From positions 1,152,001-1,216,000 of the forward strand of contig OZ245056.1 in the NCBI GenBank assembly GCA_965224705.1: a stretch of 64,000 nt of DNA, in the 5' to 3' direction. A program made the translations under genes and the position numbers. Origin of the DNA: Spirochaetaceae bacterium (lineage in GTDB: Bacteria; Spirochaetota; Spirochaetia; DSM-2461). Under the pieces are notes generated by a model. That model was not told where the DNA came from. It saw only the letters and a program-made list of their open reading frames with translations, and did no database searches. Positions 15,009 through 34,350 of this stretch are shown here, in pieces (position 1 is the stretch's first letter; every line of letters begins with the position of its first letter).

Positions 15009-16235
15009 TTACTTGCGCAGGATCAGCGTAAACCGTGTTTCCTCCTCCTTGAATTCCGGTTCCGTTCCGTTGTGCTTTTCCATCTCCGGCATAATGGTAT
15101 GGCTGATTCCCCTCCCCATGTCTTCCACATATCCGCAATCACGCATAACATCCCGCAGCAGTTCATTTCGGGCGGACCGGCATCCGGACTTCATCCTCTC
15201 TATGGTGATGGTGTTCGGCAATCTTCCCGGGGATATTATTTCCAGGCGATTTGAATATATCGACAGCTCCACATCTGTTTTGATTGTGTAATCCCGGTGG
15301 ATCAGCGCATTCACAAGTGCCTCGCGGATCGCATTCAGGGGATAATCCCATCGCTCAACCCTCTGGCCGCCGCCGCGCTCCTCCCGCATGGCAATATTGC
15401 GCTTTACAAAATCAAGCACCAGTTCTACAAGCCCCGGAAACAGCATTGTTCCATCGCCGGCATACAGGGGGATGAGCGGAGCGTTCAGGACTCTCCGTTC
15501 CCTGACAGAAGTCGACTTATTCTCTCCGTCGAATACACAGACCGATATGCCGCTGTTTTTCACAAGCCGTCTGGAATCCTTTCCAAAAAGCAGGACAGCC
15601 GCGATTGTCGGCATTCTGTCCCCATTGGCATCCGCTAGCAATTCCGTATCATAGAGAATGGATTTCCACTCCTTTGCATTGTCGATCGCAGGGACTTTTC
15701 GTCCCCTTATTACCCTGTTCGTGGAAAAATAATCGTAGATCCTTCTCAGATCAAGATCGGCGATTGAGGCATTGATGATCGGCTTCAGAATGAAGCTGCC
15801 GCATAGGGGCGAGGCATAATACAATCGGGCCTCCTGCTCCCTTGTGGCCTCCCGGCTGCTCGTTCCAACACGGATATAGGTTATCCATCTGGAACCGCTC
15901 TTTACCTTGTAGGGCTTGTCCGGCGCATTGTCCGGGAGGCTTACTATTCCGATGGATTTGCCGTCGATAACCAGAGTCTCCCAATGGGGAATCAGGGCGG
16001 GTTCAACGTTGTTAGAACAAAGATTGATTATCTTTTCTTCCCATTTCTTCCCGCTTGTCAATAAACCGGAGATTGAGCTGTCATCCTCAATGCCCAGCAA
16101 TATCCGCCCTCCCGAGAAATTCAGCAAGGCCCCTATCTCCTTTGTCAGGGCCTCATTGCCGATCTTTTCACTCTTGAATTCGATGGAAGACGATTCCCCG
16201 TTTTGAATAATTTCATCCAGGTCAACTTTGCGCAT
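15009..16235 (-). CDS. Schlafen/AlbA_2 domain protein with HATPase_c_4 (RecG C-terminal-like) domain
   Basis: GESSSIEFK, ALLNFSGGRILLGIEDD; AIREALVNALIHRDY, LEIISPG, RN..L, VEDMGRGI. Confidence 0.88.
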   Translation of the reverse strand: MRKVDLDEIIQNGESSSIEFKSEKIGNEALTKEIGALLNFSGGRILLGIEDDSSISGLLTSGKKWEEKIINLCSNNVEPALIPHWETLVIDGKSIGIVSLPDNAPDKPYKVKSGSRWITYIRVGTSSREATREQEARLYYASPLCGSFILKPIINASIADLDLRRIYDYFSTNRVIRGRKVPAIDNAKEWKSILYDTELLADANGDRMPTIAAVLLFGKDSRRLVKNSGISVCVFDGENKSTSVRERRVLNAPLIPLYAGDGTMLFPGLVELVLDFVKRNIAMREERGGGQRVERWDYPLNAIREALVNALIHRDYTIKTDVELSIYSNRLEIISPGRLPNTITIERMKSGCRSARNELLRDVMRDCGYVEDMGRGISHTIMPEMEKHNGTEPEFKEEETRFTLILRK

Positions 16236-18525
16236 TCTTGCGTTTCTCCCCCGTTATGGACTCGACTTCTTCCCTAAAAAGTACTATATCCTTACGGCAA
16301 TTTTTTTCGATCTCCTCCAAAAGTGGTTTGACATCTTTGTTCTTCCATTTGTTTTTTTCAAGCCATATATAGAAATAAAATGCCAGATTGCAGTATGTTT
16401 CGCTAAACTTCCAATCGGATTTGTTCCACTCCAGAATTTTGTCGATCAACCCCGATTCGCGGAAGGCTGTCAGCACCAGATACCTCCGCAGGGAAGTGGC
16501 CCTCCACTCAGGCCAAAACTCATCCAGACTGAAATCGCTGCCCAAAAGATGCAGGGCTAACGCGTCTTTGATGTACTCGTTTATCTGCAAAAAGCTGAAA
16601 ATCGGAAACAGAGTGTGGGGCAAATCGTCGTCGTTTATCTGCTGTTCAAGTGATTCAATCAAGGACTTCCAGATTTTTAGGCGGACATCCTTAAGGGAGA
16701 GAAAACAGGCCTGAAGCGACAGGCCGATGGCCTTGTTTTTGGGGAGGGATGTTCCTCTTTTTCCCTGTAGTTTCGACAGTTCATCGGCCCTGTCCGGATT
16801 GTCTCCAAAATAAAAGACGAAACACTTTGTCCACCACGGCGATTTAAGATGCTTTGCGGCACTGCTGATATTGTCAATGCCGCGTCCGGCAAAGAACTCC
16901 TGCAAGAGGTGGTGGCTGAAGCTAATCTTTCCATCAATCTCCCGAACCAGCCGTGATCGCCGGATGATTTCATCGCACAATTGCCGGGTATTGGTCGTGT
17001 GTCCCCTCTCCGCAAGCTCCCTGCCAATCATGGCGTTGAAATCATCCGCAGGCATGTCCGTCCTTTCCTCTGTGTGCATCGTAAAGGCTATTTTCCTGAG
17101 CAAAAAGTCCTTTATCTCATGATGAAACTGGAATTTCATCCCCTTTTCTTTATCCCAGCGCTCCAGCATTATCTCGGTGAATTTCTTGAACAGTTCCGTC
17201 ACATTGGCGGGAATGTCCCGGTTTTCATACTCCGCCGTCCAGGCGAATATGGTAACCAGCAGTGGAGTCAGCTCAAAGCCGTGAATCTCCCTTATTCGGC
17301 TGAGAGTCTTGTCGGCATGGTGCAGAAGGAGTTCTTCATCGCTCCTTGCCAGGTGCTTTTTATTGCTCCGGAGGCTTCTGGAAACAATTTTTTTAGCCTG
17401 ATTCACACTCAACGCTTCAATGCTGTATGAGAGATTGAAAAACTCGCCATCATTGATGTTCTCCCCGGGTCGGGAGACGCATATAAGTCTGGTACGGGGA
17501 TATTGCGGCTTAAATTCCCGCACCAAAAACTGGAGAATCTTTTTGCGTGTTTCCGGTTCTGGTATTTCATCAAAAGCATCGACAAGCAGCATGACACGGC
17601 TCTGTTCAAAGATCTCTTTACTTATGAGAATTTCACCCGAAAGGCTCTTTGATACTTCGCCGCAAAACCCGATAAAATCATTCATGCCGCTGATATGTCC
17701 GTGCATCTCCTTAGCTTGTATAAGCAATGGGAGAATTTTGGATTTTGGTTCAGGATTTCTGGCGATAAGGTATGACAGGCGCCACAGCAGAGTGCTCTTT
17801 CCTGTGCCCGCGTCGGCCTGAATAAAAACATCTTCCTCTTTTTTTATCAGTTCTTTTTCCGTCAGTTCATCAAGCGAAAGCTTCTGCCCCTTCTTGCTGT
17901 CGGTTGTGTGCCTGTAGAGTTTCAATGATGTATAGGAATCGTCAGTAACATGGGTTGTGATAACATCATCCGGATCGAAACTTTCAACCCGTTTCTTGAT
18001 GGCATCATAGTATACAAAGACATCCGCCGTCATGCCCTTCCATACTTCGGGGCAGTGCTCATCGATGAGGGGTATCATATCCTCAATATCGAGGAAACGG
18101 ATGTTATGGCCCTGCAGTTCCTGGTCGATATAGTCGCGTGCGCGTTTGTTGATTGTGCCTCTGGCGCAAAGAATCACCTCGTCCGGTTTTCGCTTTGCCT
18201 TTTCCCCCGGCACATGCACGGGTGTGTCGGCGGCGGTCCGCAGCTGGCACACAAGATTGGCGGCATTGGAAGCCGGGTTCACCGCCATGCTAATCTTACC
18301 CTTCTTGGTCTGAACGGCGATCATCCTTTGTTGTTTCAGTTTGTCTTCTTCAATGAAAAGAATGTCTTTCCCCAACTCATCCGGGCCGTGGTTTTCTCTG
18401 GGATTCCTGTACCCCAGGGAAAGAAACAGAGTTCGCACCACGTCTTCACGGAATTTCTTTTCGTCCAATTCGCCAAGACGCTTCCTTTTTTCTTCCATTG
18501 GAACGGCGATCTTCGGGTAGTCCAT
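16222..18525 (-). CDS. NACHT/STAND NTPase with N-terminal Mrr-like restriction endonuclease domain
   Basis: HGPDELGKDI..IAVQTK nuclease motif; Walker A ADAGTGKST; Walker B LLVDAFDE; TPLLV and FSHHLLQEFFAG NACHT motifs; GGAGG SD before ATG 18525. Confidence 0.85.
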   Translation of the reverse strand: MDYPKIAVPMEEKRKRLGELDEKKFREDVVRTLFLSLGYRNPRENHGPDELGKDILFIEEDKLKQQRMIAVQTKKGKISMAVNPASNAANLVCQLRTAADTPVHVPGEKAKRKPDEVILCARGTINKRARDYIDQELQGHNIRFLDIEDMIPLIDEHCPEVWKGMTADVFVYYDAIKKRVESFDPDDVITTHVTDDSYTSLKLYRHTTDSKKGQKLSLDELTEKELIKKEEDVFIQADAGTGKSTLLWRLSYLIARNPEPKSKILPLLIQAKEMHGHISGMNDFIGFCGEVSKSLSGEILISKEIFEQSRVMLLVDAFDEIPEPETRKKILQFLVREFKPQYPRTRLICVSRPGENINDGEFFNLSYSIEALSVNQAKKIVSRSLRSNKKHLARSDEELLLHHADKTLSRIREIHGFELTPLLVTIFAWTAEYENRDIPANVTELFKKFTEIMLERWDKEKGMKFQFHHEIKDFLLRKIAFTMHTEERTDMPADDFNAMIGRELAERGHTTNTRQLCDEIIRRSRLVREIDGKISFSHHLLQEFFAGRGIDNISSAAKHLKSPWWTKCFVFYFGDNPDRADELSKLQGKRGTSLPKNKAIGLSLQACFLSLKDVRLKIWKSLIESLEQQINDDDLPHTLFPIFSFLQINEYIKDALALHLLGSDFSLDEFWPEWRATSLRRYLVLTAFRESGLIDKILEWNKSDWKFSETYCNLAFYFYIWLEKNKWKNKDVKPLLEEIEKNCRKDIVLFREEVESITGEKRKNAQS

Positions 18526-19084
18526 GTCCACGCCTCCATTTCCGCAAAAACTCCCGTCATCAATCAGTAATGACAGTCATCTGCCGATCACCTTGATTAT
18601 ACCAGGCAGAACAATGTCCCTTCAAGCAAGCGAGAGATTGGTTAATATTTACCGTGAACACTCTGCGCTCTCTGCGTCCTCTGCGGTTGAGAATTCTTTA
18701 CCACGAAAGACACCAAAATTTGGTGGTTTACTTTCCAGGGTTCCTGAATAAACCCCTCCTCGCTTAGCGGAGATGCCACCTTTTCCCCACTGCTGACGAA
18801 AACCGCGCTCCCAAGTAGCTTTGAGTTCATCTCAAGGCCCTCCATGCGAAAGCCCCCCACACCTGAGCCCCCCACCTCCGTCCCCTCCGTGCCTCCGTAA
18901 GAAACTCCCTTCCAGCTAAGCGAAAGGAGGGGGGATTCTCAAGGGGGAACCCCCCCTTGAGTCGTATTTTTCTTTGTTAAACTTTCTTTTTGTCGAAAAA
19001 AAAGAAAGTTTAGGCCCAGCGGCCCGAGCGCCTGCGGCTTGAGCGTAGATAAAGCGGTCAAATCATGCTATGCTGAAAAGCATC

Positions 19085-20827
19085 ATGAAAAAGCTGGAAC
19101 AAGGCATCACTGAGTTCAAGGAATTTATCGATGAAAACTGCTACTTCGTCGATAAAACCCATCTTATCGGCTATCTCATCGACCACCCCAGCAAGGTTCA
19201 TTTAATCACCCGGCCCCGGCGCTTCGGCAAAACCCTGAACTTAAGCATGATCCGCTATTTCTTTGAGGCCCCCCCACCGGGCGGCAGTAGCGGCGATGTG
19301 CCGCCCAACGCCTCCCTTTTCGACGGCATGTCCATCACGGAACACCCCCGGTGCCGCGAGTTCATGGGACAGTATCCGGTAATCCACATCAGTTTCAAGG
19401 ACGTGAAAAAATCAACATTTGAGAAAAACCTGAATTTAATCAAAGATGTCATATCGGATGAATTCATCCGGCATGCTTATTTGCTGGAATGCGACTGCAT
19501 GTCAGCAAATGAGAAATCCTTTTTCAATAGAATCCTTCAAAAAGAAGCCGGGGAAGACGATTTCGAGAAATCAATCAAATACCTCTCCGCCTGGCTCCAC
19601 CGCGCCCACGGCAAACCACCCTACATCCTTCTGGACGAGTATGACACCCCCCTCCATTCGGCCCATGTGGATAAGTACTACGATCAGATGATCACCTTTA
19701 TCCGCAGCTTCATGGTGCAGACCTTCAAGGACAACCCCCATCTGAAACAGGCCGTGGTGATTGGCATATTGAAAGTTGCCCAGGAAAGCATATTCAGCGA
19801 TTTTAACAATCCCAGGGTCAGTACATTGCTGGATCCGGAAATTGAAGACAGCTTTGGGTTCACCGAGTCCGAGGTAGAGGCCATGACCGCCTACTTCGGA
19901 CTGGAAGACGAAATGGAAGGCATAAAAGAATGGTACAACGGCTACCTCTTCGGCGGTGATACCGTCATCTACAATCCATGGAGCATAGTCAGTTTTCTTA
20001 GCCGCCCCAGGGCCGGATTGAAACCCCACTGGATAGGCACCAGCGACAACAGGCTGATCAAGGATGTCATCAATTTAGACCGCCGGGAAGCCAAAATGAC
20101 AATAGAAAAACTCCTGCGGAAGGAGGAAGTCCGTAAACCCCTGCTGACCAACATCCCCTACCCTCAGGTGGAAAGCGACCCCGATGTGGTATGGAGCTTT
20201 CTTCTTCACAGCGGCTACCTGAAGGCCTCCGAGAGGCAGCAGGAACACAGGGACATAACATGGCGGCTTTCCATTCCCAACCTGGAGGTGGAAACCGCCT
20301 GGATTACCGTTATTTCCCGCTGGCTAAAGGAAGACATCAAAATAAACGAACACTTCACGGACTTTGTCACCGGCATCCAGGAAGTCAGTCCCCGGCACAT
20401 AGAACGGGGACTGTCCCGGATCCTTCGCGGCTTGGCTAGCTACCATGATACGGCCAGGAGCAAAGAGGAGGGGGAAGACGAGGAATCCAGACGGGAAAAC
20501 TTCTACCACGGTCTGGTACTGGGACTTCTGGCCTGCCTGAGCCCGGCTTATGCCGTTGAGAGCAACCGGGAATATGGTGAGGGCCGCCCGGACATCGTGG
20601 TACTCAAGAAGGGAAACAATCCGGCCCAGGCCGAGGAAGCCGTTCTGCTGGAATTCAAACATGGAACAGCGAAGGACGGCAAAGCCCTGGAAGATTTAGC
20701 CCGTGAAGCCCATACCCAGGCGGTAATGAAGTACATGGACGGAGTAAGGAACAAATGGCATCCGCAGCGGCTGCTTGTTCTGGGGGCGGGGTTCAAGGGC
20801 AGGGAACTGGCGGTTTTTTACGATTGA
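19085..20827 (+). CDS. AAA-ATPase-like + PD-(D/E)XK nuclease protein, tandem copy 1
   Basis: YFVDKT, RPRRFGKT, LLDEYDTP, WYNGY, YNPWS, IPNLEV; SNREYGEGRPDI..LEFK nuclease. Confidence 0.92.
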   Translation: MKKLEQGITEFKEFIDENCYFVDKTHLIGYLIDHPSKVHLITRPRRFGKTLNLSMIRYFFEAPPPGGSSGDVPPNASLFDGMSITEHPRCREFMGQYPVIHISFKDVKKSTFEKNLNLIKDVISDEFIRHAYLLECDCMSANEKSFFNRILQKEAGEDDFEKSIKYLSAWLHRAHGKPPYILLDEYDTPLHSAHVDKYYDQMITFIRSFMVQTFKDNPHLKQAVVIGILKVAQESIFSDFNNPRVSTLLDPEIEDSFGFTESEVEAMTAYFGLEDEMEGIKEWYNGYLFGGDTVIYNPWSIVSFLSRPRAGLKPHWIGTSDNRLIKDVINLDRREAKMTIEKLLRKEEVRKPLLTNIPYPQVESDPDVVWSFLLHSGYLKASERQQEHRDITWRLSIPNLEVETAWITVISRWLKEDIKINEHFTDFVTGIQEVSPRHIERGLSRILRGLASYHDTARSKEEGEDEESRRENFYHGLVLGLLACLSPAYAVESNREYGEGRPDIVVLKKGNNPAQAEEAVLLEFKHGTAKDGKALEDLAREAHTQAVMKYMDGVRNKWHPQRLLVLGAGFKGRELAVFYD

Positions 20828-20929
20828 TAAGCTCCGATAATGCCGACTTAAACCCCCGAATTTTTGGATTTCTGGGGTGTGAAATGCTATTGTCACGATT
20901 AAACGTCAATATGCGTGAGCCAGGTTCAA

Positions 20930-21145
20930 TAAACCCATGAATAAGGCTCTTTGAGTATATGAAAGGGGATAAACCGCAGAGGACGCAGAGGTACGCAGAG
21001 AAATACAGCATAGAAAGATTGGTCAACACTTACCGTGAACACTCTGCGCTCTCTGCGGTTATAAAAAAAGGATTCTTCAGCTTTGCGTTCATCCAAAGCC
21101 CCCCCGCAACCACAGAGCCACCACCTCCGTGCCTCCGTGAGCCCC
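20930..21145 (+). repeat. Hairpin module plus CTCCGTG-repeat module between AAA copies (also ~23049-23280, ~25186-25417, ~27323-27570)
   Basis: Same unit as the 14.2-kb array, followed by CCACCTCCGTG(CCCTCCGTG)CCTCCGTGAG. Confidence 0.88.
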
Positions 21146-21200
21146 CCCTCCACACCCCCGTATAGATGAAACAGCCAAACCATGCTATGTTTAGTATGGC

Positions 21201-22946
21201 ATGGAAAAGAATCTGACTCAGGGCATCACCGATTTCAAGAAATTCATCGACAATGATTGTTACTTTGTCGATAAAACCCGTCTCATAGAACATCTTATCA
21301 ATGACCCCAGCGAAGTGCACCTTATCACCCGACCCCGGCGCTTCGGCAAAACCCTGAACTTAAGCATGATCCGCTATTTCTTTGAGGCCCCCCCACCGGG
21401 CGGCAGCAGCGGCGATTTGCCGCCCAACGCCTCCCTTTTCGACGGCATGTCCGTCACGGAACACCCCCGGTGCCGCGAATACATGGGGCAGTATCCGGTT
21501 ATTCATTTGAGCTTTAAGGATGCCAAGGGGGCATCATTCAATGAGTGTATGGAGATAATCAGGGATATGCTCTCTATGGAATACCAGCGGCATGAATACT
21601 TACAAAATTGCGGAGTGCTGCGCGAGGCCGATAAAGAACTGTTTTCCAGAATATTGAACCGAAACAGCACCAACAACGACTGCACCCAATCCATCAAACA
21701 CCTCTCCTTCTGGCTCCACCGCGCCTACGGCAAACCACCCTACATCCTTCTCGACGAGTACGACACGCCCCTGCATTCGGCCCATGTGGACAGGTACTAC
21801 GACCAGATGATCACCTTCATCCGCAGCTTCATGGTGCAGACCTTCAAGGACAACCCCCACCTGAAACAGGCCGTGGTAATCGGCATATTAAAAGTTGCTC
21901 AGGAGAGTATATTCAGCGACTTCAACAATCCCAGTGTGTCCACCATCCTTTCCTCGGCCATGAAGGACTGCTTTGGTTTCACCGAAGCGGAAGTGGAGGC
22001 AATGGCCGCTTACTTTGGACTGGAAGACGCAATGGAGGGCATAAAAGAATGGTACAACGGCTACCTCTTCGGCGGGGACACCGTCATCTACAATCCATGG
22101 AGCATCGTCAACTATCTGCGCTCACCCGAGGAAGGGTTAACACCCCACTGGATAGGCACCAGCGACAACAGGCTGATCAAGGATGTCATCCAATTAGACC
22201 GCCGGGAAGCCAAGATGACCATAGAAAAACTCCTGCGGAAGGAAGAAGTCCGCAAACCCCTGCTGACCAACATTCCCTACCCTCAGGTGGAAAGCGACCC
22301 GGACGTAGTATGGAGCTTTTTACTCCACAGCGGCTACCTGAAGGCCTCCGAGAGGCGGCAGGAACACAGGGACATAACATGGCGGCTCTCCATTCCCAAT
22401 CTGGAGGTGGAAACCGCCTGGATTACCGTTATTTCCCGCTGGCTTAAGGAAGACATCAAGATAAACGAACACTTCACGGACTTTGTCACCGGCATACAGG
22501 AAGCCAGTCCCCGGCACATAGAACGGGGACTGTCCCGAATTCTTCGCGGCTTGGCCAGCTACCATGATACGGCCAGGAGCAAAGAGGAGGGGGAAGACGA
22601 GGAATCCAGACGGGAAAACTTCTACCACGGTCTGGTACTGGGACTTCTGGCCTGCCTGAGCCCGGCGTATGCCGTTGAGAGCAACCGGGAATATGGTGAG
22701 GGCCGCCCGGACATCGTGGTACTCAAGAAGGGAAACAATCCGGCCCAGGCCGAGGAAGCCGTTCTGCTGGAATTCAAACATGGAACAGCGAAGGACGGCA
22801 AAGCCCTGGAAGATTTAGCCCGTGAAGCCCATACCCAGGCGGTAACGAAGTACATGGACGGAGTAAGGAACAAATGGCATCCGCAGCGGCTGCTTGTTCT
22901 GGGGGTAGGGTTTAGGGGCAGGGAACTGGCGGTTTTTTATGATTGA
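21201..22946 (+). CDS. AAA-ATPase-like + PD-(D/E)XK nuclease protein, tandem copy 2
   Basis: Same motifs as copy 1; 581 aa. Confidence 0.92.
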   Translation: MEKNLTQGITDFKKFIDNDCYFVDKTRLIEHLINDPSEVHLITRPRRFGKTLNLSMIRYFFEAPPPGGSSGDLPPNASLFDGMSVTEHPRCREYMGQYPVIHLSFKDAKGASFNECMEIIRDMLSMEYQRHEYLQNCGVLREADKELFSRILNRNSTNNDCTQSIKHLSFWLHRAYGKPPYILLDEYDTPLHSAHVDRYYDQMITFIRSFMVQTFKDNPHLKQAVVIGILKVAQESIFSDFNNPSVSTILSSAMKDCFGFTEAEVEAMAAYFGLEDAMEGIKEWYNGYLFGGDTVIYNPWSIVNYLRSPEEGLTPHWIGTSDNRLIKDVIQLDRREAKMTIEKLLRKEEVRKPLLTNIPYPQVESDPDVVWSFLLHSGYLKASERRQEHRDITWRLSIPNLEVETAWITVISRWLKEDIKINEHFTDFVTGIQEASPRHIERGLSRILRGLASYHDTARSKEEGEDEESRRENFYHGLVLGLLACLSPAYAVESNREYGEGRPDIVVLKKGNNPAQAEEAVLLEFKHGTAKDGKALEDLAREAHTQAVTKYMDGVRNKWHPQRLLVLGVGFRGRELAVFYD

Positions 22947-23337
22947 TAAGCTCCGATAATGCCGACTTAAACCCCCGAATTTTTGGATTTCTGGGGTGTG
23001 AAATGCTATTGTCACGATTAAACATCAATATGCGTGAGCCAGGTTCAATAAACCCATGAATAAGGCTCTTTGAGTATATGAAAGGGGATAAACCGCAGAG
23101 GACGCAGAGGTACGCAGAGAAATACAGCATAGAAAGATTGGTCAACACTTACCGTGAACACTCTGCGCTCTCTGCGTCCTCTGCGGTTATAAAAAAAGGA
23201 TTCTTCAGCTTTGCGTTCATCCAAAGCCCCCCCGCAACCACAGAGCCACCACCTCCGTGCCCTCCGTGCCTCCGTGAGCCCCCCCTCCACACCCCCGTAT
23301 AGATGAAACAGCCAAACCATGCTATGTTTAGTATGGC

Positions 23338-25083
23338 ATGGAAAAGAATCTGACTCAGGGCATCACCGATTTCAAGAAATTCATCGACAATGATTGTTAC
23401 TTTGTCGATAAAACCCGTCTCATAGAACATCTTATCAATGACCCCAGCGAAGTGCACCTTATCACCCGGCCCCGTCGCTTCGGCAAAACCCTGAACTTAA
23501 GCATGATCCGCTACTTCTTTGAGGCCCCGCTGCCGGACGGCGGCAACACTGACGCACCGCCCAATGCCTCCCTTTTCGACGGCATGTCCGTCACGGAACA
23601 CCCCCGGCACCGCGAATACATGGGGCAGTATCCGGTGATTCATTTGAGCTTCAAGAATGTAAAAAGTCCTTCCCATGAGAACAGCATGCATCTCATTCAA
23701 TCCTGCCTGGCCGATGAATTCAGAAGGCATAATTATTTGAAAGACAGCGGCTGCCTCGCTGAAGAGGAATTGACATTGTTCAACAGGATTATCAGGCGCG
23801 AAGGATCGGAACAGGACTGCGCGGAATCCCTTCCTCTCCTCTCCGCCTGGCTCCACCGCGCCTACGGCAAACCACCCTACATCCTTCTCGACGAGTATGA
23901 CACGCCCCTGCATTCGGCCCATGTGGACAGGTACTACGACCAGATGATCACCTTCATCCGCAGCTTCATGGTGCAGACCTTCAAGGACAACCCCCACCTG
24001 AAACAGGCCGTGGTAATCGGCATATTAAAAGTTGCTCAGGAGAGTATATTCAGCGACTTCAACAATCCCAGGGTCAGCACATTGCTGGATCCGGAAATAG
24101 AAGACAGCTTTGGCTTTACCGAGTCCGAGGTAGAAGCCATGACAGCCTACTTTGGACTGGAAGACGAAATGAAGGGCATAAGAGAATGGTACAACGGCTA
24201 CCTCTTCGGCGGGGACACCGTTATCTACAACCCCTGGAGCATAGTCAGTTTTCTTAGCTGCCCCAGGGCCGGACTGAAACCCCACTGGATAGGCACCAGC
24301 GACAACAGGCTGATCAAGGATGTCATCCAATTAGACCGCCGGGAAGCCAAAATGACCATAGAAAAACTCCTGCGGAAGGAAGAAGTCCGCAAACCCCTGT
24401 TGACCAACATCCCCTACCCTCAGGTAGAAAGCGACCCCGATGTGGTATGGAGCTTTCTTCTTCACAGCGGCTACCTGAAGGCCTCCGAGAGGCAGCAAGA
24501 ACACAGGGACATAACATGGCGGCTTTCCATTCCCAACCTGGAGGTGGAAACCGCCTGGATTACCGTTATTTCCCGCTGGCTTAAGGAAGACATCAAGATA
24601 AACGAACACTTCACGGACTTCGTCACCGGCATACAGGAAGCCAGTCCCCGGCACATAGAACGGGGACTGTCCCGCATTCTTCGCGGCTTGGCCAGCTACC
24701 ATGATACGGCCAGGAGTAAAGAGGAGTGGGAGGACGAGGAATCCAGACGGGAGAACTTCTATCACGGCCTGGTACTGGGTCTTCTGGCCTGCCTGAGCCC
24801 GGCTTATGCCGTTGAGAGCAACCGGGAATACGGTGAGGGCCGCCCGGACATCGTGGTGGTCAAGAAGGGAAACAATCCGGCCCAGGCCGAGGAAGCCGTT
24901 CTGCTGGAATTCAAACATGGAACAGCGAAGGACGGCAAAGCCCTGGAAGATTTAGCCCGTGAAGCCCATACCCAGGCGGTAACGAAGTACATGGACGGAG
25001 TAAGGAACAAATGGCATCCGCAGCGGCTGCTTGTTCTGGGGGTAGGGTTTAGGGGCAGGGAACTGGCGGTTTTTTATGATTGA
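23338..25083 (+). CDS. AAA-ATPase-like + PD-(D/E)XK nuclease protein, tandem copy 3
   Basis: Same motifs; starts 2137 bp after copy 2. Confidence 0.92.
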   Translation: MEKNLTQGITDFKKFIDNDCYFVDKTRLIEHLINDPSEVHLITRPRRFGKTLNLSMIRYFFEAPLPDGGNTDAPPNASLFDGMSVTEHPRHREYMGQYPVIHLSFKNVKSPSHENSMHLIQSCLADEFRRHNYLKDSGCLAEEELTLFNRIIRREGSEQDCAESLPLLSAWLHRAYGKPPYILLDEYDTPLHSAHVDRYYDQMITFIRSFMVQTFKDNPHLKQAVVIGILKVAQESIFSDFNNPRVSTLLDPEIEDSFGFTESEVEAMTAYFGLEDEMKGIREWYNGYLFGGDTVIYNPWSIVSFLSCPRAGLKPHWIGTSDNRLIKDVIQLDRREAKMTIEKLLRKEEVRKPLLTNIPYPQVESDPDVVWSFLLHSGYLKASERQQEHRDITWRLSIPNLEVETAWITVISRWLKEDIKINEHFTDFVTGIQEASPRHIERGLSRILRGLASYHDTARSKEEWEDEESRRENFYHGLVLGLLACLSPAYAVESNREYGEGRPDIVVVKKGNNPAQAEEAVLLEFKHGTAKDGKALEDLAREAHTQAVTKYMDGVRNKWHPQRLLVLGVGFRGRELAVFYD

Positions 25084-25474
25084 TAAGCTCCGATAATGCC
25101 GACTTAAACCCCCGAATTTTTGGATTTCTGGGGTGTGAAATGCTATTGTCACGATTAAACATCAATATGCGTGAGCCAGGTTCAATAAACCCATGAATAA
25201 GGCTCTTTGAGTATATGAAAGGGGATAAACCGCAGAGGACGCAGAGGTACGCAGAGAAATACAGCATAGAAAGATTGGTCAACACTTACCGTGAACACTC
25301 TGCGCTCTCTGCGTCCTCTGCGGTTATAAAAAAAGGATTCTTCAGCTTTGCGTTCATCCAAAGCCCCCCCGCAACCACAGAGCCACCACCTCCGTGCCCT
25401 CCGTGCCTCCGTGAGCCCCCCCTCCACACCCCCGTATAGATGAAACAGCCAAACCATGCTATGTTTAGTATGGC

Positions 25475-27220
25475 ATGGAAAAGAATCTGACTCAGGGCAT
25501 CACCGATTTCAAGAAATTCATCGACAATGATTGTTACTTTGTCGATAAAACCCGTCTCATAGAACATCTTATCAATGACCCCAGCGAAGTGCACCTCATC
25601 ACCCGTCCCCGTCGCTTCGGCAAAACCCTGAATTTAAGCATGATCCGCTATTTCTTTGAGGCCCCGCTGCCGGGCGGCAGCAGCGGCGATGTGCCGCCCA
25701 ACGCCTCCCTTTTCGACGGCATGTCCATCACGGAACACCCCCGGTGCCGCGAGTTCATGGGACAGTATCCGGTTATTCATTTGAGCTTTAAGGATGTTAA
25801 AAACAACGCATACAGCAAAGCAATCAACCTTGTCCGAGAAGTCATTGCCATTGAATTCAACAGGCATGGATATCTAACCGAACAAGGATTCTTAAACAGC
25901 CGGGAAGAAATTTTCTTCACAAGCATAGTCAATCAGGAAGGTACAGACGAGGACTATGCAAAATCCATCAAGTGGCTCTCCGCCTGGCTCCACCGCGCCC
26001 ACGGCAAACCACCCTACATCCTTCTGGACGAGTATGACACCCCCCTGCATTCGGCCCATGTGGATAAGTACTACGATCAGATGATCACCTTTATCCGCAG
26101 CTTCATGGTGCAGACCTTCAAGGACAACCCCCACCTGAAACAGGCCGTGGTGATCGGCATATTGAAAGTTGCTCAGGAAAGTATATTCAGCGACTTTAAC
26201 AATCCCAGGGTCAGTACATTGCTGGACCCGGAAATTGAAGACACTTTCGGGTTCACAGAATCCGAAGTGGAAACCATGGCCGCCTACTTTGGACTGGAAG
26301 ACGAGATGGATGGCATAAGAGAATGGTACAACGGCTACCTCTTCGGCGGGGACACCGTCATCTACAATCCGTGGAGCATCGTTAGCTTTCTTGGCCGCCC
26401 CAGGGCCGGGCTGAAACCCCACTGGATAGGCACCAGCGACAACAGGCTAATCAAGGATGTCATCCAATTAGACCGCCGGGAAGCCAAGATGACCATAGAA
26501 AGACTCCTGCGGAAGGAAGAAGTCCGCAAACCCCTGTTGACCAACATTCCCTACCCTCAGGTAGAAAGCGACCCCGATGTTGTATGGAGCTTTCTTCTTC
26601 ACAGCGGCTACCTGAAGGCCTCCGAAAGGCAGCAGGAACACAGGGACATAACATGGCGGCTCGCCATTCCCAACCTGGAGGTGGAAACCGCCTGGATTAC
26701 CGTTATTTCCCGCTGGCTAAAGGAAGATATCAAGATAAACGAACACTTCACGGACTTCGTCACCGGCATACAGGAAGCCAGTCCCCGGCACATAGAACGG
26801 GGGCTTTCCCGCATCCTTCGCGGTTTGACCAGCTACCATGATACGGCCAGGAGTAAAGAGGAGTGGGAGGACGAGGAATCCAGACGGGAGAACTTCTACC
26901 ACGGCCTGGTACTGGGTCTTCTGGCCTGCCTGAGCCCGGCATATATCGTTGAGAGCAACCGGGAATATGGTGAGGGCCGTCCGGACATCGTGGTACTCAA
27001 GAAGGGAAACAATCCAACCCAGGCCGAGGAAGCCGTCCTTTTGGAGTTCAAACATGGGAACGCGAAGGACGGCAAGGCCCTGGAAGATTTAGCCCGTGAA
27101 GCCCATACCCAGGCGGTAGAAAAATACCTGGACGGGGTCAGAGAAAAGTGGCATCCTGAGCGCCTGCTTGTTCTGGGAGCAGGGTTTAAGGGCAGGGAAC
27201 TGGCGGTTTTTTATGATTGA
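25475..27220 (+). CDS. AAA-ATPase-like + PD-(D/E)XK nuclease protein, tandem copy 4
   Basis: Same motifs; starts 2137 bp after copy 3. Confidence 0.92.
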   Translation: MEKNLTQGITDFKKFIDNDCYFVDKTRLIEHLINDPSEVHLITRPRRFGKTLNLSMIRYFFEAPLPGGSSGDVPPNASLFDGMSITEHPRCREFMGQYPVIHLSFKDVKNNAYSKAINLVREVIAIEFNRHGYLTEQGFLNSREEIFFTSIVNQEGTDEDYAKSIKWLSAWLHRAHGKPPYILLDEYDTPLHSAHVDKYYDQMITFIRSFMVQTFKDNPHLKQAVVIGILKVAQESIFSDFNNPRVSTLLDPEIEDTFGFTESEVETMAAYFGLEDEMDGIREWYNGYLFGGDTVIYNPWSIVSFLGRPRAGLKPHWIGTSDNRLIKDVIQLDRREAKMTIERLLRKEEVRKPLLTNIPYPQVESDPDVVWSFLLHSGYLKASERQQEHRDITWRLAIPNLEVETAWITVISRWLKEDIKINEHFTDFVTGIQEASPRHIERGLSRILRGLTSYHDTARSKEEWEDEESRRENFYHGLVLGLLACLSPAYIVESNREYGEGRPDIVVLKKGNNPTQAEEAVLLEFKHGNAKDGKALEDLAREAHTQAVEKYLDGVREKWHPERLLVLGAGFKGRELAVFYD

Positions 27221-27629
27221 TAAGCTCCGATAATGCCGACTTAAGCCCCCGAATTTTTTGGATTTCTGGGGTGTGAAATGCTATTGTCACGATTAAACGT
27301 CAATATGCGAGAGCCAAATTCAATAAACCCATGAATAAGGCTCTTTGAATACATGGAAAAGGGATAAACCGCAGAGGACGCAGAGGCACGCAGAGAAATA
27401 CAGGATAGAAAGATTAGTCAATACTTACCGTGAACACTTTGCGCTCTCTGCGTCCTCTGCGGTTATAAAAAAAAGAGGATTCTTCAGCTTTGCGTTCATC
27501 TCAAGCCCCCGTACGAAAGCCCCCCCGCACCAGATGCCGCCACCTCCGTGCCCTCCGTGCCTCCGTGAGCCCCCCCCTCCACACCCCCGTATAGATGAAA
27601 CAGCCAAACCATGCTATGTTAAAAGCATC

Positions 27630-29375
27630 ATGAAAAAGAAACTGACTCAAGGTATTACTGATTTCAAAGAATTCATCGACAACGACTGCTATTTTGTCGA
27701 TAAAACCCATCTTATCGCGCACCTTATCGACGACCCCAGCAAGGTCCATTTAATTACCCGCCCCCGGCGCTTTGGAAAAACCTTGAATCTGAGCATGATC
27801 CGCCACTTCCTGGAAGCCCCCCTGCCCACTCCCCAAGACCAGAATTCCCACACATCGTTCACAACTCCCAATGCTTACCTTTTTGAGAATCTTGCAATCG
27901 CCTCCCATCCGCGCTGCGCCGAGTTCATGGGGCAGTATCCGGTTATTCATTTGAGCTTCAAGAATGTGAAAAGTCCTTCCCAGGAGAACAGCATGCGTCT
28001 CATTCAATCCTGCCTGGCCGATGAATTCAGAAGGCATAATTATTTGAAAGACAGAGACTGCCTCGCTGAAGAGGAATTGACATTGTTCAACTGGATTCTC
28101 AGGCGCAAGGGATCTGAACAGGACTGTGCGGAAGCCCTTCGTCAACTCTCCGCATGGCTCCACCGCGCCTACGGCAAACCACCCTACATCCTTCTGGACG
28201 AGTACGACACCCCCCTCCATTCGGCCCATGTGGATAACTACTACGACCAGATGATCGCCTTCATCCGCAGCTTCATGGTGCAGACCTTCAAGGACAACCC
28301 CCACCTGAAACAGGCCGTGGTAATCGGCATATTGAAAATTGCCCAGGAGAGCATATTCAGCGACTTTAACAATCCCAGGGTGAACACATTGCTGGATCCG
28401 GAAATTGAAGACACATTCGGGTTCACAGAATCCGAGGTGGAAACCATGACCGCTCACTTTGGTCTGGAAAATACCATGGATGGTATAAAAAAATGGTACA
28501 ACGGCTACCTCTTCGGCGGAGAAACCGTCATCTACAATCCCTGGAGCATCGTCAGTTTTCTTAGTCGTCCCAAAGCCGGTCTGCACCCGCACTGGATAAG
28601 CACCAGCGACAACAGACTCGTCAAGGAAGTCATCAAACTAAAGCGCCGGGATGCGAAAATGACAACAGAAAAACTTCTACGGAAAGAGGAAGTGCGCAAG
28701 CCGCTCTTGACCAACATTCCCTACACCCAGATAGAAAATGATCCGGATGTGGTATGGAGTTTCCTTCTCCACAGCGGCTACCTCAAAGCTTCCGACATGC
28801 ACCAGGAAGAACTGGGAACCAGCTGGCGGCTCTCCATACCCAACAAAGAATTGGAAACGGCCTGGAAGACTGTGGTGCTGAACTGGCTGAAGGAGGATCT
28901 GTCCATCAACGAGGATTTTACGGACTTTATCAGCGGCATCAGAGAAGCCAATCCCAGGCTGATTGAACGCGGCCTGAAGCGAATCCTGTTTGGCCTGGCC
29001 AGTTATTACGATAGCGCGCGGGACGAGGAGGATAGGCGGGAAAACTTCTACCATGGTCTTGTACTGGGTCTTCTGGCCTATCTTGGCCCGGCCTATACCG
29101 TGGACAGCAACCGGGAGTATGGGAGAGGCCGCTCGGACATTGTGGTGGTCAGAAAGGGAAGCGATCCTGCCCAGGCCGAGGAGGCTTTTGTGTTCGAATT
29201 CAAGCAGGGAAACACCGATGCTGATACCTCACTGGAAGTGCTGGCCCAGGCTGCTTATGCCCAGGCGGTGGAGGGATACCTTGGCGGAGTCAGGGAGAAA
29301 TGGCATCCGAAGGAATTGTTGGTTCTGGGAATTGGTTTCCGGGGGAAAGACTTGTCCCTGTATTGCGAGGCATGA
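27630..29375 (+). CDS. AAA-ATPase-like + PD-(D/E)XK nuclease protein, tandem copy 5 (divergent C-terminal half)
   Basis: Start MKKKLTQG at 27630 by alignment with paralogs; SNREYGRGRSDI..FEFK. Confidence 0.92.
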   Translation: MKKKLTQGITDFKEFIDNDCYFVDKTHLIAHLIDDPSKVHLITRPRRFGKTLNLSMIRHFLEAPLPTPQDQNSHTSFTTPNAYLFENLAIASHPRCAEFMGQYPVIHLSFKNVKSPSQENSMRLIQSCLADEFRRHNYLKDRDCLAEEELTLFNWILRRKGSEQDCAEALRQLSAWLHRAYGKPPYILLDEYDTPLHSAHVDNYYDQMIAFIRSFMVQTFKDNPHLKQAVVIGILKIAQESIFSDFNNPRVNTLLDPEIEDTFGFTESEVETMTAHFGLENTMDGIKKWYNGYLFGGETVIYNPWSIVSFLSRPKAGLHPHWISTSDNRLVKEVIKLKRRDAKMTTEKLLRKEEVRKPLLTNIPYTQIENDPDVVWSFLLHSGYLKASDMHQEELGTSWRLSIPNKELETAWKTVVLNWLKEDLSINEDFTDFISGIREANPRLIERGLKRILFGLASYYDSARDEEDRRENFYHGLVLGLLAYLGPAYTVDSNREYGRGRSDIVVVRKGSDPAQAEEAFVFEFKQGNTDADTSLEVLAQAAYAQAVEGYLGGVREKWHPKELLVLGIGFRGKDLSLYCEA

Positions 29376-29502: not shown

Positions 29503-30180
29503 GGTTACAAAACCCATGAATAAGGCTCTTTGAGTATATGAAAGGGGGATAAACCGCAGAGGACGCAGAGGTACGCAGAGAAATGAAGCATAGAAAGATT
29601 GGTCAATACTTACCGTGAACACTCTGCGCTCTCTGCGTCCTCTGCGGTTATAAAAAGAAAAGAGGATTCTTCAGCTTTGCGCTCATCTCAAGGCCCCGTG
29701 CGAAAGCCCCCCCATAACCAGAGCCACCACCTCCGTGCCCTCCGTGCCTCCGTGAGAGACACACCCCAGAATCATTGTTTTTCATTTTTGGGGGACTTGT
29801 AATTGGCTTCTAACGTGAACACTCTACGCTCTCTGCGGTTACAAAACTCATGAATAAGCCTCTTTGAGTATATGAAAGAGGGATAAACCGCAGAGGACGC
29901 AGAGAAATACAGCATAGAAAGATTGGTCAATACTTACCGTGAACACTCTGCGCTCTCTGCGTCCTCTGCGGTTATAAAAAGAGAGGATTCTTCAGCTTTG
30001 CGTTCATCCAAAGCCCCCCGCAACCCAGGCCACCACCTCCGTGTCCTCCGTGCCTCCGTGAGAGACACCCCAGAATCGTTGTTTTTGATTTCTAGGGCAC
30101 TTGTAATTGGCTTCTAACGCGAACACTCTGCGTCCTCTGCGGTTACAAAACCCATGAATAAGGCTCTTTGAGTATATGAG
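29503..30180 (+). repeat. Composite array of hairpin and CTCCGTG modules
   Basis: Full units near 29550 and 29884 plus half units. Confidence 0.88.
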
Positions 30181-30269: not shown

Positions 30270-30536
30270 TCAGAGCTTTTCGATCTCTTCTTCGCTTAGG
30301 CCGGTGGCCTTGATGATGAGTTCCATGTCGGCTCCGGCGGCTTTTAATCGCCTGGCTGTTTGCATTATACCCTCTTCCCTGCCATCGTTCCAGGATTCAT
30401 CCAGGCCGCTTAGATAATCCCTTCTCCATTTCTCTTTGGCTTCCAGCCTGTCAAGCATGGCTTGATCGGCAGTGAATGTTGTGTAGAGTTTATGGGCCTC
30501 CTGAATATATGGGTTGTCTCCCAATAGCACGGGCAT
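30270..30536 (-). CDS. Putative internally translated small Rpn C-terminal protein (RpnS-like), 88 aa
   Basis: AAGGAGG-ACGAG-ATG in frame inside the Rpn gene. Confidence 0.6.
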   Translation of the reverse strand: MPVLLGDNPYIQEAHKLYTTFTADQAMLDRLEAKEKWRRDYLSGLDESWNDGREEGIMQTARRLKAAGADMELIIKATGLSEEEIEKL

Positions 30537-31124
30537 CTCGTCCTCCTTCAAATAACCTTCGTACTTAAAAAAATAGCACCATCGTTCAAAGTCGCTTCCA
30601 ATAGCCAGGTGGGCTTCATCGGGAAATGTCATTTTCGAGAGTTCCATGAACATGATGTACAGATGGTCGGTCAAGACCTGTTCGGGATGATCCATTTCGG
30701 TAAGTTGAAAGCAGGTGTGGTACTCCTCCAGTTGTGGAAAAAGGGGCTCGCCAACCAGATTGATGCAAATAACCGGATTGAGTCTGGAGTAGGCCTCTGA
30801 TTCACGCAGTTGGTTCTGGTAGTTTTTTGCCCAGTATAACAGACTTCGATTGGCAAAATACTTGCCGGTGGAGATCTGTATCTCAACGTTAATGATGCGA
30901 TTGCGGCTGTCTCTTGCCTTGACATCCAGTATAGTTTCCCTGTCGCTGAAGTATTCTTTCAGGTTGTAGGGGTTGAGTATATCGACGCTGGTGACCGGGC
31001 CTAATTCCTTTGGAGTTAAAAATGCATTGATAAAATTCGTCAGCAGGCTGGTGTTTTTCTCATCGCCCAGAAGGGCACGGGCAAACAAGTCAGACAGCGG
31101 ATCGAATGGTCTGGTTGTTTCCAT
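30270..31124 (-). CDS. Rpn family recombination-promoting nuclease / PD-(D/E)XK putative transposase, copy 1
   Basis: PLSDLFA, ILDVKARD..INVEIQ, RSLLYWAKNY, C-terminal GREEG..ARRLK..IIKATGLSEEEI. Confidence 0.92.
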   Translation of the reverse strand: METTRPFDPLSDLFARALLGDEKNTSLLTNFINAFLTPKELGPVTSVDILNPYNLKEYFSDRETILDVKARDSRNRIINVEIQISTGKYFANRSLLYWAKNYQNQLRESEAYSRLNPVICINLVGEPLFPQLEEYHTCFQLTEMDHPEQVLTDHLYIMFMELSKMTFPDEAHLAIGSDFERWCYFFKYEGYLKEDEMPVLLGDNPYIQEAHKLYTTFTADQAMLDRLEAKEKWRRDYLSGLDESWNDGREEGIMQTARRLKAAGADMELIIKATGLSEEEIEKL

Positions 31125-31837: not shown

Positions 31838-32116
31838 TCAGAGCTTTTCGATCTCTTCTTCGCTCAGGCCGGTGGCCTTGATGATGAGTTCCATGTCGGC
31901 TCCGGCGGCTTTTAATCGCCTGGCTGTTTGCATTATGCCTTCTTCTATACCCTCTTCCCTGCCATCGTTCCAGGATTCATCCAAACCGCTTAGATAATCC
32001 CTTCTCCATTTCTCCTTGGCTTCCAGCCTGTCCAACATGGCTTGATCGGCGGTGAATTGGGTGTAGAGTTTATGGGCCTCCTGAATATACGGGTTGTCTC
32101 CCAATAAGACTCGCAT
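31838..32116 (-). CDS. Putative RpnS-like small protein, 92 aa
   Basis: AAGGAGG-ACGAG-ATG conserved in frame. Confidence 0.6.
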   Translation of the reverse strand: MRVLLGDNPYIQEAHKLYTQFTADQAMLDRLEAKEKWRRDYLSGLDESWNDGREEGIEEGIMQTARRLKAAGADMELIIKATGLSEEEIEKL

Positions 32117-32704
32117 CTCGTCCTCCTTTAAGTAACCTTCGTACTTGAAAAAATAGCACCATCGCTCGAAGTCGCTTTCAAAAGTCAGGCTGTCCCTGTC
32201 GGGAAAGGCCATCTTCGACAGCTCCATAAACATGATGCACAGATGGTCGGTCAGCACCAGCTCTGGATTACCCACTTCGGTAATATGAAAGCAGGTGTGA
32301 CACTCCTCCAGTTGGGGAAAAACGGACTCGCCAACCAGATTGATGCAAATAACCGGATTGAGTTTGGAGTAGGCCTCTGTTTTCCGCAACTGGTTCTGAT
32401 AGTTTTTTGCCCAGTATAACAGACTGCGATTGGCAAAATACTTGCCGGTGGATATCTGTATTTCTATGTCGATGATGCGCTTGCGGTTGTCTCTTGCCTT
32501 GACATCCAGTATGGTTTCCCTGTCGCTGAAGTATTCTTTCAGGTTGTAGGGGTTGAGTATCTCGACGCTGGTGACCGGGCCTAATTCCTTTTGAGTTAAA
32601 AAAGCATTGATAAAATTCGTCAGCAGGCTGGTGTTTTTCTCATCGCCCAGAAGGGCACGGGCAAACAAGTCAGACAGCGGATCGAATGGTCTGGTTGTTT
32701 CCAT
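31838..32704 (-). CDS. Rpn family nuclease, copy 2
   Basis: Close paralog of 30270-31124 with an extra EEGI repeat. Confidence 0.92.
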   Translation of the reverse strand: METTRPFDPLSDLFARALLGDEKNTSLLTNFINAFLTQKELGPVTSVEILNPYNLKEYFSDRETILDVKARDNRKRIIDIEIQISTGKYFANRSLLYWAKNYQNQLRKTEAYSKLNPVICINLVGESVFPQLEECHTCFHITEVGNPELVLTDHLCIMFMELSKMAFPDRDSLTFESDFERWCYFFKYEGYLKEDEMRVLLGDNPYIQEAHKLYTQFTADQAMLDRLEAKEKWRRDYLSGLDESWNDGREEGIEEGIMQTARRLKAAGADMELIIKATGLSEEEIEKL

Positions 32705-33261: not shown

Positions 33262-34350
33262 CTAATTCACTGTAACCGTTATGGTTCCAGTTATTCCAGC
33301 ACCCTCTTCTGATTCCGCTGTTATGGTTGCGGTCTGGCCTCCCGTCGCTGTTGAAACAACCGTCACCAGTCCAGTCGTACTTACCGTCGCTACGTTTGTA
33401 TCGCTACTCTTCCATGAGACAATCTGAGATGGATTGTTGGTTCCTGTTACGGTTGCACTCAGCTGTACCGTGCCGCCTGCATCCAGATTCTGATTACCTT
33501 CGTTTATCGTAACAGAAGTTACCGTAGGATCCAGTGCAACCGTTGTCTTCACGGTAGCTGCGATATTGTTGTTAGGCGTGGCCGCCTTATCCGCAGCAAA
33601 ACCTTCCGCTATAACCACGCTGACCTCTTGGCCTAATATGAATTGTACCATGTTTGTTTCGATTTTCACCGTCATTCCATCATTTTGCAAAGTAACACTG
33701 TATACAGAAAGATGTGTGGGGTTAGCGCCACCATCGTCATGCATAACCGTTAGTTTGGCTTTTTGCTCGTCTGCAGTACCGAGCAATGTTATGGCCTCAT
33801 TTGCTTTAAGGTACATTATATTAGTCCCTCCTGATTCCCAAGCGATTACTGTAAACGTTGGGGCTGTTGTATCGACCGGGGTGGCTGTTTTCTCTTCTGA
33901 GGCCGCACTTTCCCCGGTGGCATTCGTTGCTGTTATCTTGAAGAAGTACGGTGTGCCGTCGGTCAGGCCTGTCACTTCCTTTGTCAACGTAGTGCCGCCG
34001 GTGACCTCGACTGCCGTAACACCTGCGGCAGCCAGATCAGTAATGGTCGATTCAGAGTGGTAGACCGTATACTTGGTGATAACTCCCTTCGTGCCATCCC
34101 CGCCAATGTAGCCCGTATCGGTGGGTGCTGTCCATGAGAGTGTGATGTTCCCCGCCGTGTCCGCAGTTGCGGTGACTAAAGTCGGTGCTCCGGGAGGCGC
34201 GTCCTCGACGGTGGAATTGGTAGACGGACAGGCCGCGAGCAGCACGGCGAGCAGGCTTGCTGCAAGAATGAAGGATGCTGTCGCGAACGCCGAGCGCGTT
34301 CCGTTTGCCCTTCTGCTTCGTTTGAGAGTTTTGAGGTGATTCCGATTCAT
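33262..34350 (-). CDS. Surface lipoprotein: 1 FN3 + 1 PTFT Ig-like + 1 Big_2-like domain
   Basis: Same leader family (VLLAAC); PPGAP FN3; DTTAPTFT..DKAATPN; VQLSATV..VSWKSSD..VATV. Confidence 0.88.
   Translation of the reverse strand: MNRNHLKTLKRSRRANGTRSAFATASFILAASLLAVLLAACPSTNSTVEDAPPGAPTLVTATADTAGNITLSWTAPTDTGYIGGDGTKGVITKYTVYHSESTITDLAAAGVTAVEVTGGTTLTKEVTGLTDGTPYFFKITATNATGESAASEEKTATPVDTTAPTFTVIAWESGGTNIMYLKANEAITLLGTADEQKAKLTVMHDDGGANPTHLSVYSVTLQNDGMTVKIETNMVQFILGQEVSVVIAEGFAADKAATPNNNIAATVKTTVALDPTVTSVTINEGNQNLDAGGTVQLSATVTGTNNPSQIVSWKSSDTNVATVSTTGLVTVVSTATGGQTATITAESEEGAGITGTITVTVN

Follow-up and report, generated by a model that had tools for sequence, protein, structure and literature searches.

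In a window of 64,000 bp from the genome of a Spirochaetaceae bacterium (contig OZ245056.1, positions 1,152,001 to 1,216,000; coordinates below are those of the window unless stated otherwise), we found five intact tandem genes of the DUF1703 family, each predicted to code for an ATPase joined to a PD-(D/E)XK nuclease. Together they carry four classes of a 60-residue block lying inside the ATPase, and a few old alleles of this module have been shuffled among intact DUF1703 genes. With a probability that we put at roughly 0.4, the block would be an old allelic recognition module deciding which partner protein gates the nuclease. This partner would probably come from a phage or another mobile element, and a role in defence would be the weakest step of the interpretation.

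The host genome is a single contig of 3.0 Mb (hereafter G000). The array consists of five open reading frames (ORFs) on the forward strand, at 19085..20827 (copy 1, 580 amino acids [aa]), 21201..22946 (copy 2), 23338..25083 (copy 3), 25475..27220 (copy 4) and 27630..29375 (copy 5, counted from the ATG that aligns with the other copies), the last four of 581 aa and none with an internal stop. With start spacings of 2116, 2137, 2137 and 2155 bp, this is the tandem arrangement that an earlier reading of the DNA, made from its letters only (hereafter the sequence-only reading), had described, down to the coordinates and the ~2.1-kb spacing. The profiles PF09820 and PF08011, which together make up the DUF1703 architecture, were above cut-off in the three copies scanned (1, 2 and 5), with E-values of 1.7e-43 and 2.4e-9, respectively, in copy 2. 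In this copy, the Walker A motif RPRRFGKT is found at 21330..21353, the Walker B motif DEYD at 21753..21764 and the PD-(D/E)XK nuclease domain at 22593..22943, all on the forward strand. Outside the block, copies 1 to 4 (backbone clade C) are 92-94% identical in aa, that is 30-43 residue differences, and the backbone of copy 5 (clade B) is 74-77% identical to theirs. The near-identity previously claimed for copies 1 to 4 is therefore correct for most of their length but not everywhere. First, copy 2 differs at a second allelic block, M2 (21933..21971, forward strand, residues 245-257), where its allele is unlike that of the other four copies, and at a third one, M3 (22110..22142, forward strand, residues 304-314). 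Second, the N-terminus of copy 1 diverges, with 72-75% nucleotide (nt) identity over the first 40 alignment columns.

The block itself is an in-frame stretch of 60 codons (180 bp), bounded by SFK(D/N) and LS(A/F)WL in all five copies and located on the forward strand at 19403..19582, 21522..21701, 23659..23838, 25796..25975 and 27966..28145. Its edges are sharp: at codon 108, mismatches go up from about zero to 1-3 per codon, and the divergence ends at codon 167. The first four blocks fall into four classes (k1 to k4, in the order of the copies) that are only 28-40% identical in aa to each other, while the block of copy 5 is again of class k3 on the other backbone: blocks 3 and 5 are 83% identical in aa, with 15 nt differences, despite backbones that are only 77% identical. 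Classes k1 and k4 are also present in backbone-B paralogs of the same genome and in the congener G001, and k4 in the congener G009 as well. The E(F/Y).RH.YL core is kept throughout, R130 and H131 being found in all 44 full-length paralogs of the genome and E127 in 43 of them. Thus, five blocks at these positions, four divergent alleles of one length and a common core, all proposed by the sequence-only reading, were recovered here. Block length is 60 residues in 43/44 paralogs; of 122 more distant homologs, 116 have an insert of 58-61 aa. Across the family, the block is the least conserved window (0.19-0.26) and lies between the most conserved stretches.

By comparing paralogs window by window, we could show that the block moves between backbones. 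We took the 172 paralog pairs whose C-terminal halves are at least 88% identical: in the three block windows, 58-75% of them fell below 70% identity, and in the non-block windows 0-24% did. Hence the data agree with the suggestion that homogenisation affects the ATPase and the nuclease but spares the block. In trees built on the C-terminal half, clade B comprises 11 genes (support 100/99) and clade C 7 genes (100/100), both well supported, and the same five block clades are found in each. When sequences from other assemblies were added, the B and C clusters reached 42 and 31 sequences, respectively, still with those five classes only, out of 19 block classes counted among 161 sequences (161 of 173 could be parsed and 12 were dropped). 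On a further backbone (A), RH.YL divides the block into two halves that are combined independently of each other. In 17 arrays of G000, G001 and G009, 28 of the 35 adjacent pairs differed (<75% nt identity) at codons 141-160 and 20 at codons 101-140, with only 1-5 in the windows from 321 to 580. Most windows of the C-terminal half are comparably divergent genome-wide, yet uniform within arrays.

The array accounts for 5 of the 44 full-length DUF1703 paralogs of G000, all without internal stops, so that the intact allelic repertoire proposed from the window turned out to be far larger than the window. These paralogs are spread over 24 loci, 13 of which are tandem runs of two to five genes; fragments with fewer than 500 aligned residues exist besides and were not counted. 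G49 and K50 of Walker A, D185 and E186 of Walker B and the sensor-1 glycine G228 are conserved in 44/44 paralogs. The same holds for E472, D504, E524 and K526 in the nuclease and, with Q546 invariant in one alignment, nuclease motifs I to IV are all represented. In addition, E497 is found in 44/44 and the histidine of E472xxxH476 in 43/44, a rough fit to the motif described for CR-REase7. Beyond this genome, we found the family in 5 of 30 relatives searched, in 24 genomes of a phylum-wide sample of 200 and in 13987 clusters at 50% identity. In plasmid and phage collections, only relatives below 40% identity were present (22 and 11 records, respectively).

Variation at the block recurs in independent single-contig genomes (G001, G009, G069 and G199). 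In G001, we observed a six-copy array with the alleles in the order ABABAB and a four-copy ABAB array, the allele pairs tested being 53-55% identical in nt within the module, compared to 94-99% for their flanks. Arrays of AABABA and AAB order are found in G009. G069 and G199 belong to another family and carry a distant subfamily in which the insert is shorter, and variation again falls on the position of the block: differing pairs are 40-44% identical in nt over a 44-residue segment vs 80-92% in the flanks, with three alleles in three tandem copies in G069 and an ABA array in G199. Blocks resembling M2 and M3 occur in this subfamily as well. Two further genomes are less clear-cut: of the five tandem copies of G015, one differs at the block position, with other blocks varying as much, and the two copies in the G060 array are uniform there. 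Classes k1 and k4 are common to G000 and G001 with a proportion of synonymous differences (pS) of 0.37-0.43, compared to 0.82 for recA. G009 and G012, whose recA genes differ at pS 0.87, have one block in common at 99% identity. Since block pS lies below recA pS between species, these comparisons point to a horizontal passage of block alleles among congeners.

We then considered the age of the alleles. Synonymous sites are saturated between the block classes of the array (pS 0.70-0.99 in 9 of 10 pairs), the ratio of nonsynonymous to synonymous substitution rates (dN/dS) is 0.24-0.34 in the three between-class pairs for which it could be computed, and among close block alleles the ratio of the corresponding proportions (pN/pS) is 0.16, similar to the rest of the gene. 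Therefore, the idea of a hypervariable block under recent diversifying selection did not survive the dN/dS check that the sequence-only reading itself had proposed. In the 18 block classes compared, hydrophobic core positions are kept and the remaining positions vary. The block alleles are old, constrained and few rather than freshly mutated. Because the insert is 58-61 aa long in 116/122 distant homologs, the constant 180 bp is structural, reflecting a fixed fold and not a precise exchange mechanism; indeed, 180 bp as the exact unit of exchange is ruled out by this family-wide length together with the recombining halves.

A structural model of the copy 2 protein, built from 133 sequences, reached a predicted local distance difference test (pLDDT) score of 92 and a predicted template modelling (pTM) score of 0.84, and replaced an earlier one from 51 close homologs that was discarded (pLDDT 59). 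The sequence-only reading had proposed such a prediction, and in the model the block (residues 108-167) is a helical subdomain of the ATPase, preceded by strand 2 (100-104) and followed by the Walker B strand (181-185), with predicted helices at 113-130, 132-135 and 142-152 and the start of another at 158-176. The best structural matches to residues 3-409 were two archaeal proteins resembling signal transduction ATPases with numerous domains (STAND), namely Paby2304 (2qen; Z 18.2, root-mean-square deviation [rmsd] 3.9, 304 residues aligned) and SSO1545 (2fna; Z 17.2, rmsd 4.2, 306 aligned), which are about 350 residues long, 12-13% identical and without match to the nuclease part. Lower matches included nucleotide-binding leucine-rich-repeat proteins (NLRs), Avs, Cdc6/Orc, TnsC and MuB; matches to a predicted STAND-like core range from Z 10 to 18 over residues 1-420. 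The nuclease part resembles Wolbachia CidB/CinB (7esy; Z 9.0, rmsd 3.1, 149 aligned). A sequence search of solved structures gave nothing significant, the best hit being 7esz (E 0.16), and a protein atlas returned only PF09820 and unnamed clusters over the module region. The copy 2 protein opens with the ATPase and closes with the nuclease, and since it has no repeat sensor domain, the insert is its main allelic surface. By topology, and not by superposition, the block presumably sits where initiator-specific motifs do. Such a motif is described in Apaf-1 as touching the equivalent motifs of neighbouring subunits around the pore (PMC5050015), and in IstB as engaging DNA (PMC11208146). Representatives of the block classes have a net charge of 0 to -6, and this neutral-to-acidic character favours a protein-contact over a DNA-contact surface.

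We propose that homologous recombination within the conserved SFK and LS.WL/Walker B flanks would move the block, either whole or by halves, that short conversion tracts would homogenise the rest of the gene up to the block edges, and that selection would keep several module alleles. The module would recognise a partner protein, which would switch the nuclease on or block it, and ATP-dependent oligomerisation may gate the nuclease as in other STAND proteins. Selection for distinct specificities fits the data because five classes are found on two backbones, arrays alternate, catalytic residues are intact and the pattern recurs in another subfamily. Moreover, a divergence peak that persists under gene conversion has been described as a signature of selection (PMC3924837), and the neighbours of the array in the window include defence-type domains (Mrr-NACHT, Schlafen AlbA_2 and two PDDEXK_2 genes).

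Several observations weigh against a recognition module. First, M2 and M3 differ in 11-15 of the 35 adjacent pairs, so that two further blocks swap as well. Second, adjacent same-backbone pairs in G000 are no more different than non-adjacent ones (14/18 vs 141/174), that is, without the excess that selection for unlike neighbours in this genome would leave. Third, pairwise Nei-Gojobori counts gave no recent positive selection in the block, and low module conservation between highly conserved stretches would by itself favour whole-block exchange. Fourth, no PADLOC or NCBIfam model matches the DUF1703 protein. We also screened the neighbours at 20 other loci (20 further stretches of G000): among 106 neighbouring ORFs, a PADLOC match (E<=1e-25) was present at only 4 of the 20 loci and most neighbours were transport or metabolic genes. 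With 4/20 loci, the family is not concentrated in defence islands. Finally, genes combining a nucleoside triphosphatase (NTPase) with a restriction-type nuclease are linked in the literature to transposable elements (PMC5289972, PMC11342252).

Some of the same points would suit a neutral mosaic, an explanation that is unlikely on balance. Here, a spreading and possibly selfish family would undergo conversion that homogenises everything except long heterology in the least constrained subdomain, the alleles being equivalent and replenished horizontally. The low conservation of the module between the most conserved blocks, the swapping of M2 and M3, likewise with conserved flanks, the lack of positive selection and the lack of excess neighbour difference in G000 all go in this direction. 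So do the alleles that are closer between species than recA, which make import likely, and the fact that duplicating one pair can yield an ABAB order. On the other hand, most C-half windows are about as divergent genome-wide yet uniform in arrays, two backbones retain the same five classes, the catalytic residues are intact in 44/44 copies, and alternation in G001 is strict despite ~1.2 kb at 97-99% identity that would permit odd-unit crossovers. We also ran a toy neutral model that starts from six actual paralogs and leaves out duplication, loss, mutation and import. In most of its settings, the module was homogenised as fast as or faster than the C-terminal half, a weak result but the reverse of the data; a first neutral simulation was uninformative, with every window diverged.

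It is rather unlikely that the module is instead a self-assembly code, that is, a subunit contact in an ATPase ring or filament that insulates paralogs through like-with-like or obligate AB oligomers. A self-contacting module could be swapped whole without co-changes, as in G001, the ABABAB order suggests balanced dosage, and the topological position would be that of the self-contacting Apaf-1 motif (PMC5050015). This last match is at the level of topology and not of residues, the independent reshuffling of module halves on backbone A would break self-complementarity, and insulation alone gives no reason for many classes per backbone.

We regard as improbable that the module sets the cutting or insertion site of a self-mobilising ATPase-nuclease, like the corresponding motif of Orc1/Cdc6, TnsC and IstB. 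Fold matches do include Cdc6/Orc1, TnsC and MuB, with IstB as a precedent (PMC11208146), the 44 copies are dispersed among 24 loci, G009 has two of the upstream flanks without the gene, and the family has been proposed to be transposon-related (PMC5289972, PMC11342252). Nevertheless, the neutral-to-acidic modules (net charge 0 to -6) are unlike the basic DNA-contacting motif of initiator-clade AAA+ proteins, no terminal inverted repeats are common to the 24 loci within 400-bp flanks, and no clean empty site was seen in four flank searches of G009.

Very improbable, in turn, is a host-directed nuclease effector of an animal-associated spirochaete that would vary to match or evade host proteins. 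The CidB/CinB-like nuclease fold, the expansions reported in symbionts (PMC6387759) and the presence of mollusc metagenomes among the runs containing the stretch all fit it; the sequence has no signal peptide or header domain, the protein beginning about 40 residues before Walker A, no partner gene is conserved at the 20 other loci, and the family is widespread among bacteria (13987 clusters). Lastly, a collapsed or chimeric assembly is hardly credible: none of the short contigs from four public sequencing runs spanned the array, so that the unit order is unconfirmed by reads, but each module class is found in frame at other places of the genome as well as in further assemblies, the same architecture exists in the independent genomes G001, G009, G069 and G199, and block 4 was recovered almost exactly from a public run (179 nt, 2 differences). 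Coverage of the stretch by RNA runs was not counted as evidence of transcription.

A 2016 study in Nucleic Acids Research is said to have defined the clades CR-NTPase8 and CR-REase7 and may discuss the insert. DUF1703 itself was defined computationally, with Walker A RPRRFGK[ST], Walker B DEYD and a sensor-1 glycine as motifs (PMC1913061). The closest precedent that we found is the expansion of DUF1703 to 25 copies in Cardinium cCpun, with intragenic recombination and a function given as unknown (PMC6387759). It resembles the present case in domains, motifs and lineage-specific expansion with recombination, and differs in that 44 intact copies, many in tandem, are found here with the variation in one module across backbones and species. 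In the accessible part of that paper, recombination events are given (Table S4) without positions and no localized module is described (PMC6387759). More generally, the literature covered, in part, held no description of a localized swappable module in DUF1703, which is not proof of its absence. What appears to be new from our comparisons is thus the recurrent allelic module within a known family, expansion with recombination having already been published.

Genes combining an NTPase and a restriction-type nuclease are described as transposon-related and akin to Tribolium Medea1 and CifB (PMC11342252, PMC5289972). The likeness to CR-NTPase8 plus CR-REase7, Medea1 and CifB consists of the NTPase fused to such a nuclease, a roughly matching ExxxH motif and the nuclease fold like CidB/CinB; traits noted for CR-NTPase8/CR-REase7 elements are a conserved histidine shortly after the active-site glutamate and a glutamate on the first core strand (PMC11342252). 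Unlike CifB (CidB/CinB), with its paired nuclease domains and adjacent cifA, the proteins studied here have a single nuclease domain and lack both a CifA-like partner and a secretion header. PF09820 is also listed among the domains of RADAR, PARIS and Old-tin (PMC10952713).

With STAND proteins (Avs/AVAST, bacterial NLR-like proteins, plant NLRs and Apaf-1/CED-4), DUF1703 shares a related core of ATPase, helical and winged-helix domains (Z 10-15 to NLRs, Avs3 and Avs5) and, possibly, a principle of polymorphic recognition coupled to an ATP-gated effector. In contrast to these receptors, the nuclease is C-terminal, there is neither an N-terminal effector nor a TPR, LRR or WD40 sensor, and the polymorphism lies inside the ATPase. 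The domain shuffling of type I restriction HsdS subunits is another exchange of segments between conserved flanks. Gene conversion at tprK and vls is likewise described as recombining variable segments between conserved flanks, but no silent donors or single expression site exist here: each donor is itself an intact gene, and the enzyme encoded is predicted to be cytoplasmic. Beside the array, we saw neither an invertase nor a recombinase.

The DUF1703 family is very large, expands repeatedly in host-associated bacteria and is related to the Medea/CifB nucleases. The arrays described here offer natural pairs of nearly isogenic genes, with identities of up to 97-99% downstream of a single predicted subdomain. 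Such pairs point to the likely specificity element and make the function of the family testable. If the module is indeed a recognition surface, an immune repertoire would have been built differently from repeat-domain sensors. It is doubtful, though conceivable, that DUF1703 as a whole is a widespread sensor-less branch of STAND immune nucleases with specificity in a swappable ATPase subdomain, whose combinatorial repertoire (module halves, two minor blocks and backbones) and alleles traded between species would form an NLR-like library without retroelement or silent cassettes.

Retroelement hypermutation of the block was ruled out, with no adenine bias and no template copy. In 61 close block pairs, differences are mostly transitions of both kinds, and block matches outside full-length genes occur at only two places in the genome, each at or beside broken paralogs. 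A diversity-generating retroelement does lie directly upstream of a DUF1703 paralog (L032:49-3754, in G000:C1:2209000-2217000). It comprises an FGE-sulfatase-like target with a repeat pair (81%) at 769-886 and 1370-1487, an Avd match above cut-off and a reverse transcriptase divided between two ORFs, and it is without action on the DUF1703 block. A second locus (L033:921-4193, in G000:C1:524000-530000) holds a retroelement-like remnant in which an FGE-sulfatase-like gene and a truncated reverse transcriptase abut a DUF1703 3' fragment. Three reverse transcriptase elements of ~2040 bp, 97-98% identical and likely group II introns, are found near G000:C1 positions 331800, 1071300 and 1652400, in addition to fragments; one of them sits between DUF1703 genes.

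In the window, an Mrr_cat-NACHT protein (769 aa) and then a Schlafen AlbA_2/HATPase_c_4 protein (408 aa) are encoded at 15009-18531 on the reverse strand, divergent from the array. On its other side, two tandem PDDEXK_2 (Rpn/YhgA-like) genes lie at 30270-31124 and 31838-32704 (reverse strand), 88% identical over 300 nt and with 10 long matches in the genome. Adjoining genes at 44416-46926 match PADLOC NsnA (E 8e-107) and NsnB (E 3e-108). Three fibronectin/Ig-domain proteins with a common lipoprotein-like leader are encoded on the reverse strand (11523-14042, 33262-34350 and 35570-37585), residues 408-489 of the last one matching Big_2. A 2160-aa ORF at 52722-59204 (reverse strand), in DNA of 28-33% GC, gave no Pfam (E<=1e-12), NCBIfam or PADLOC match.

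In most DUF1703 copies, a motif of the TGCTATG- or CGCTATAAT-type, noticed by eye, ends about 8-14 bases before the start codon (e.g. 21180-21200), which suggests an extended -10 promoter proper to each gene and a leaderless message. A scan with the sigma-70 consensus found fewer sites than in shuffled sequences and did not detect this start-proximal motif. Repeats resembling repetitive extragenic palindromes (REP) occupy spacers of the window (e.g. 18632-18688, 21013-21069 and 29593-29649), and one such 18-mer occurs 129 times in the genome with at most one mismatch, 22 of these near DUF1703 starts. Finally, two single DUF1703 copies (L048:2407-9231 and L049:1940-8073) each lie between like genes, one pair being 494-aa ORFs with the same N-terminus (the one scanned is a glycosyl hydrolase of family 3) and the other two caspase-domain genes, possibly the trace of integration by recombination.

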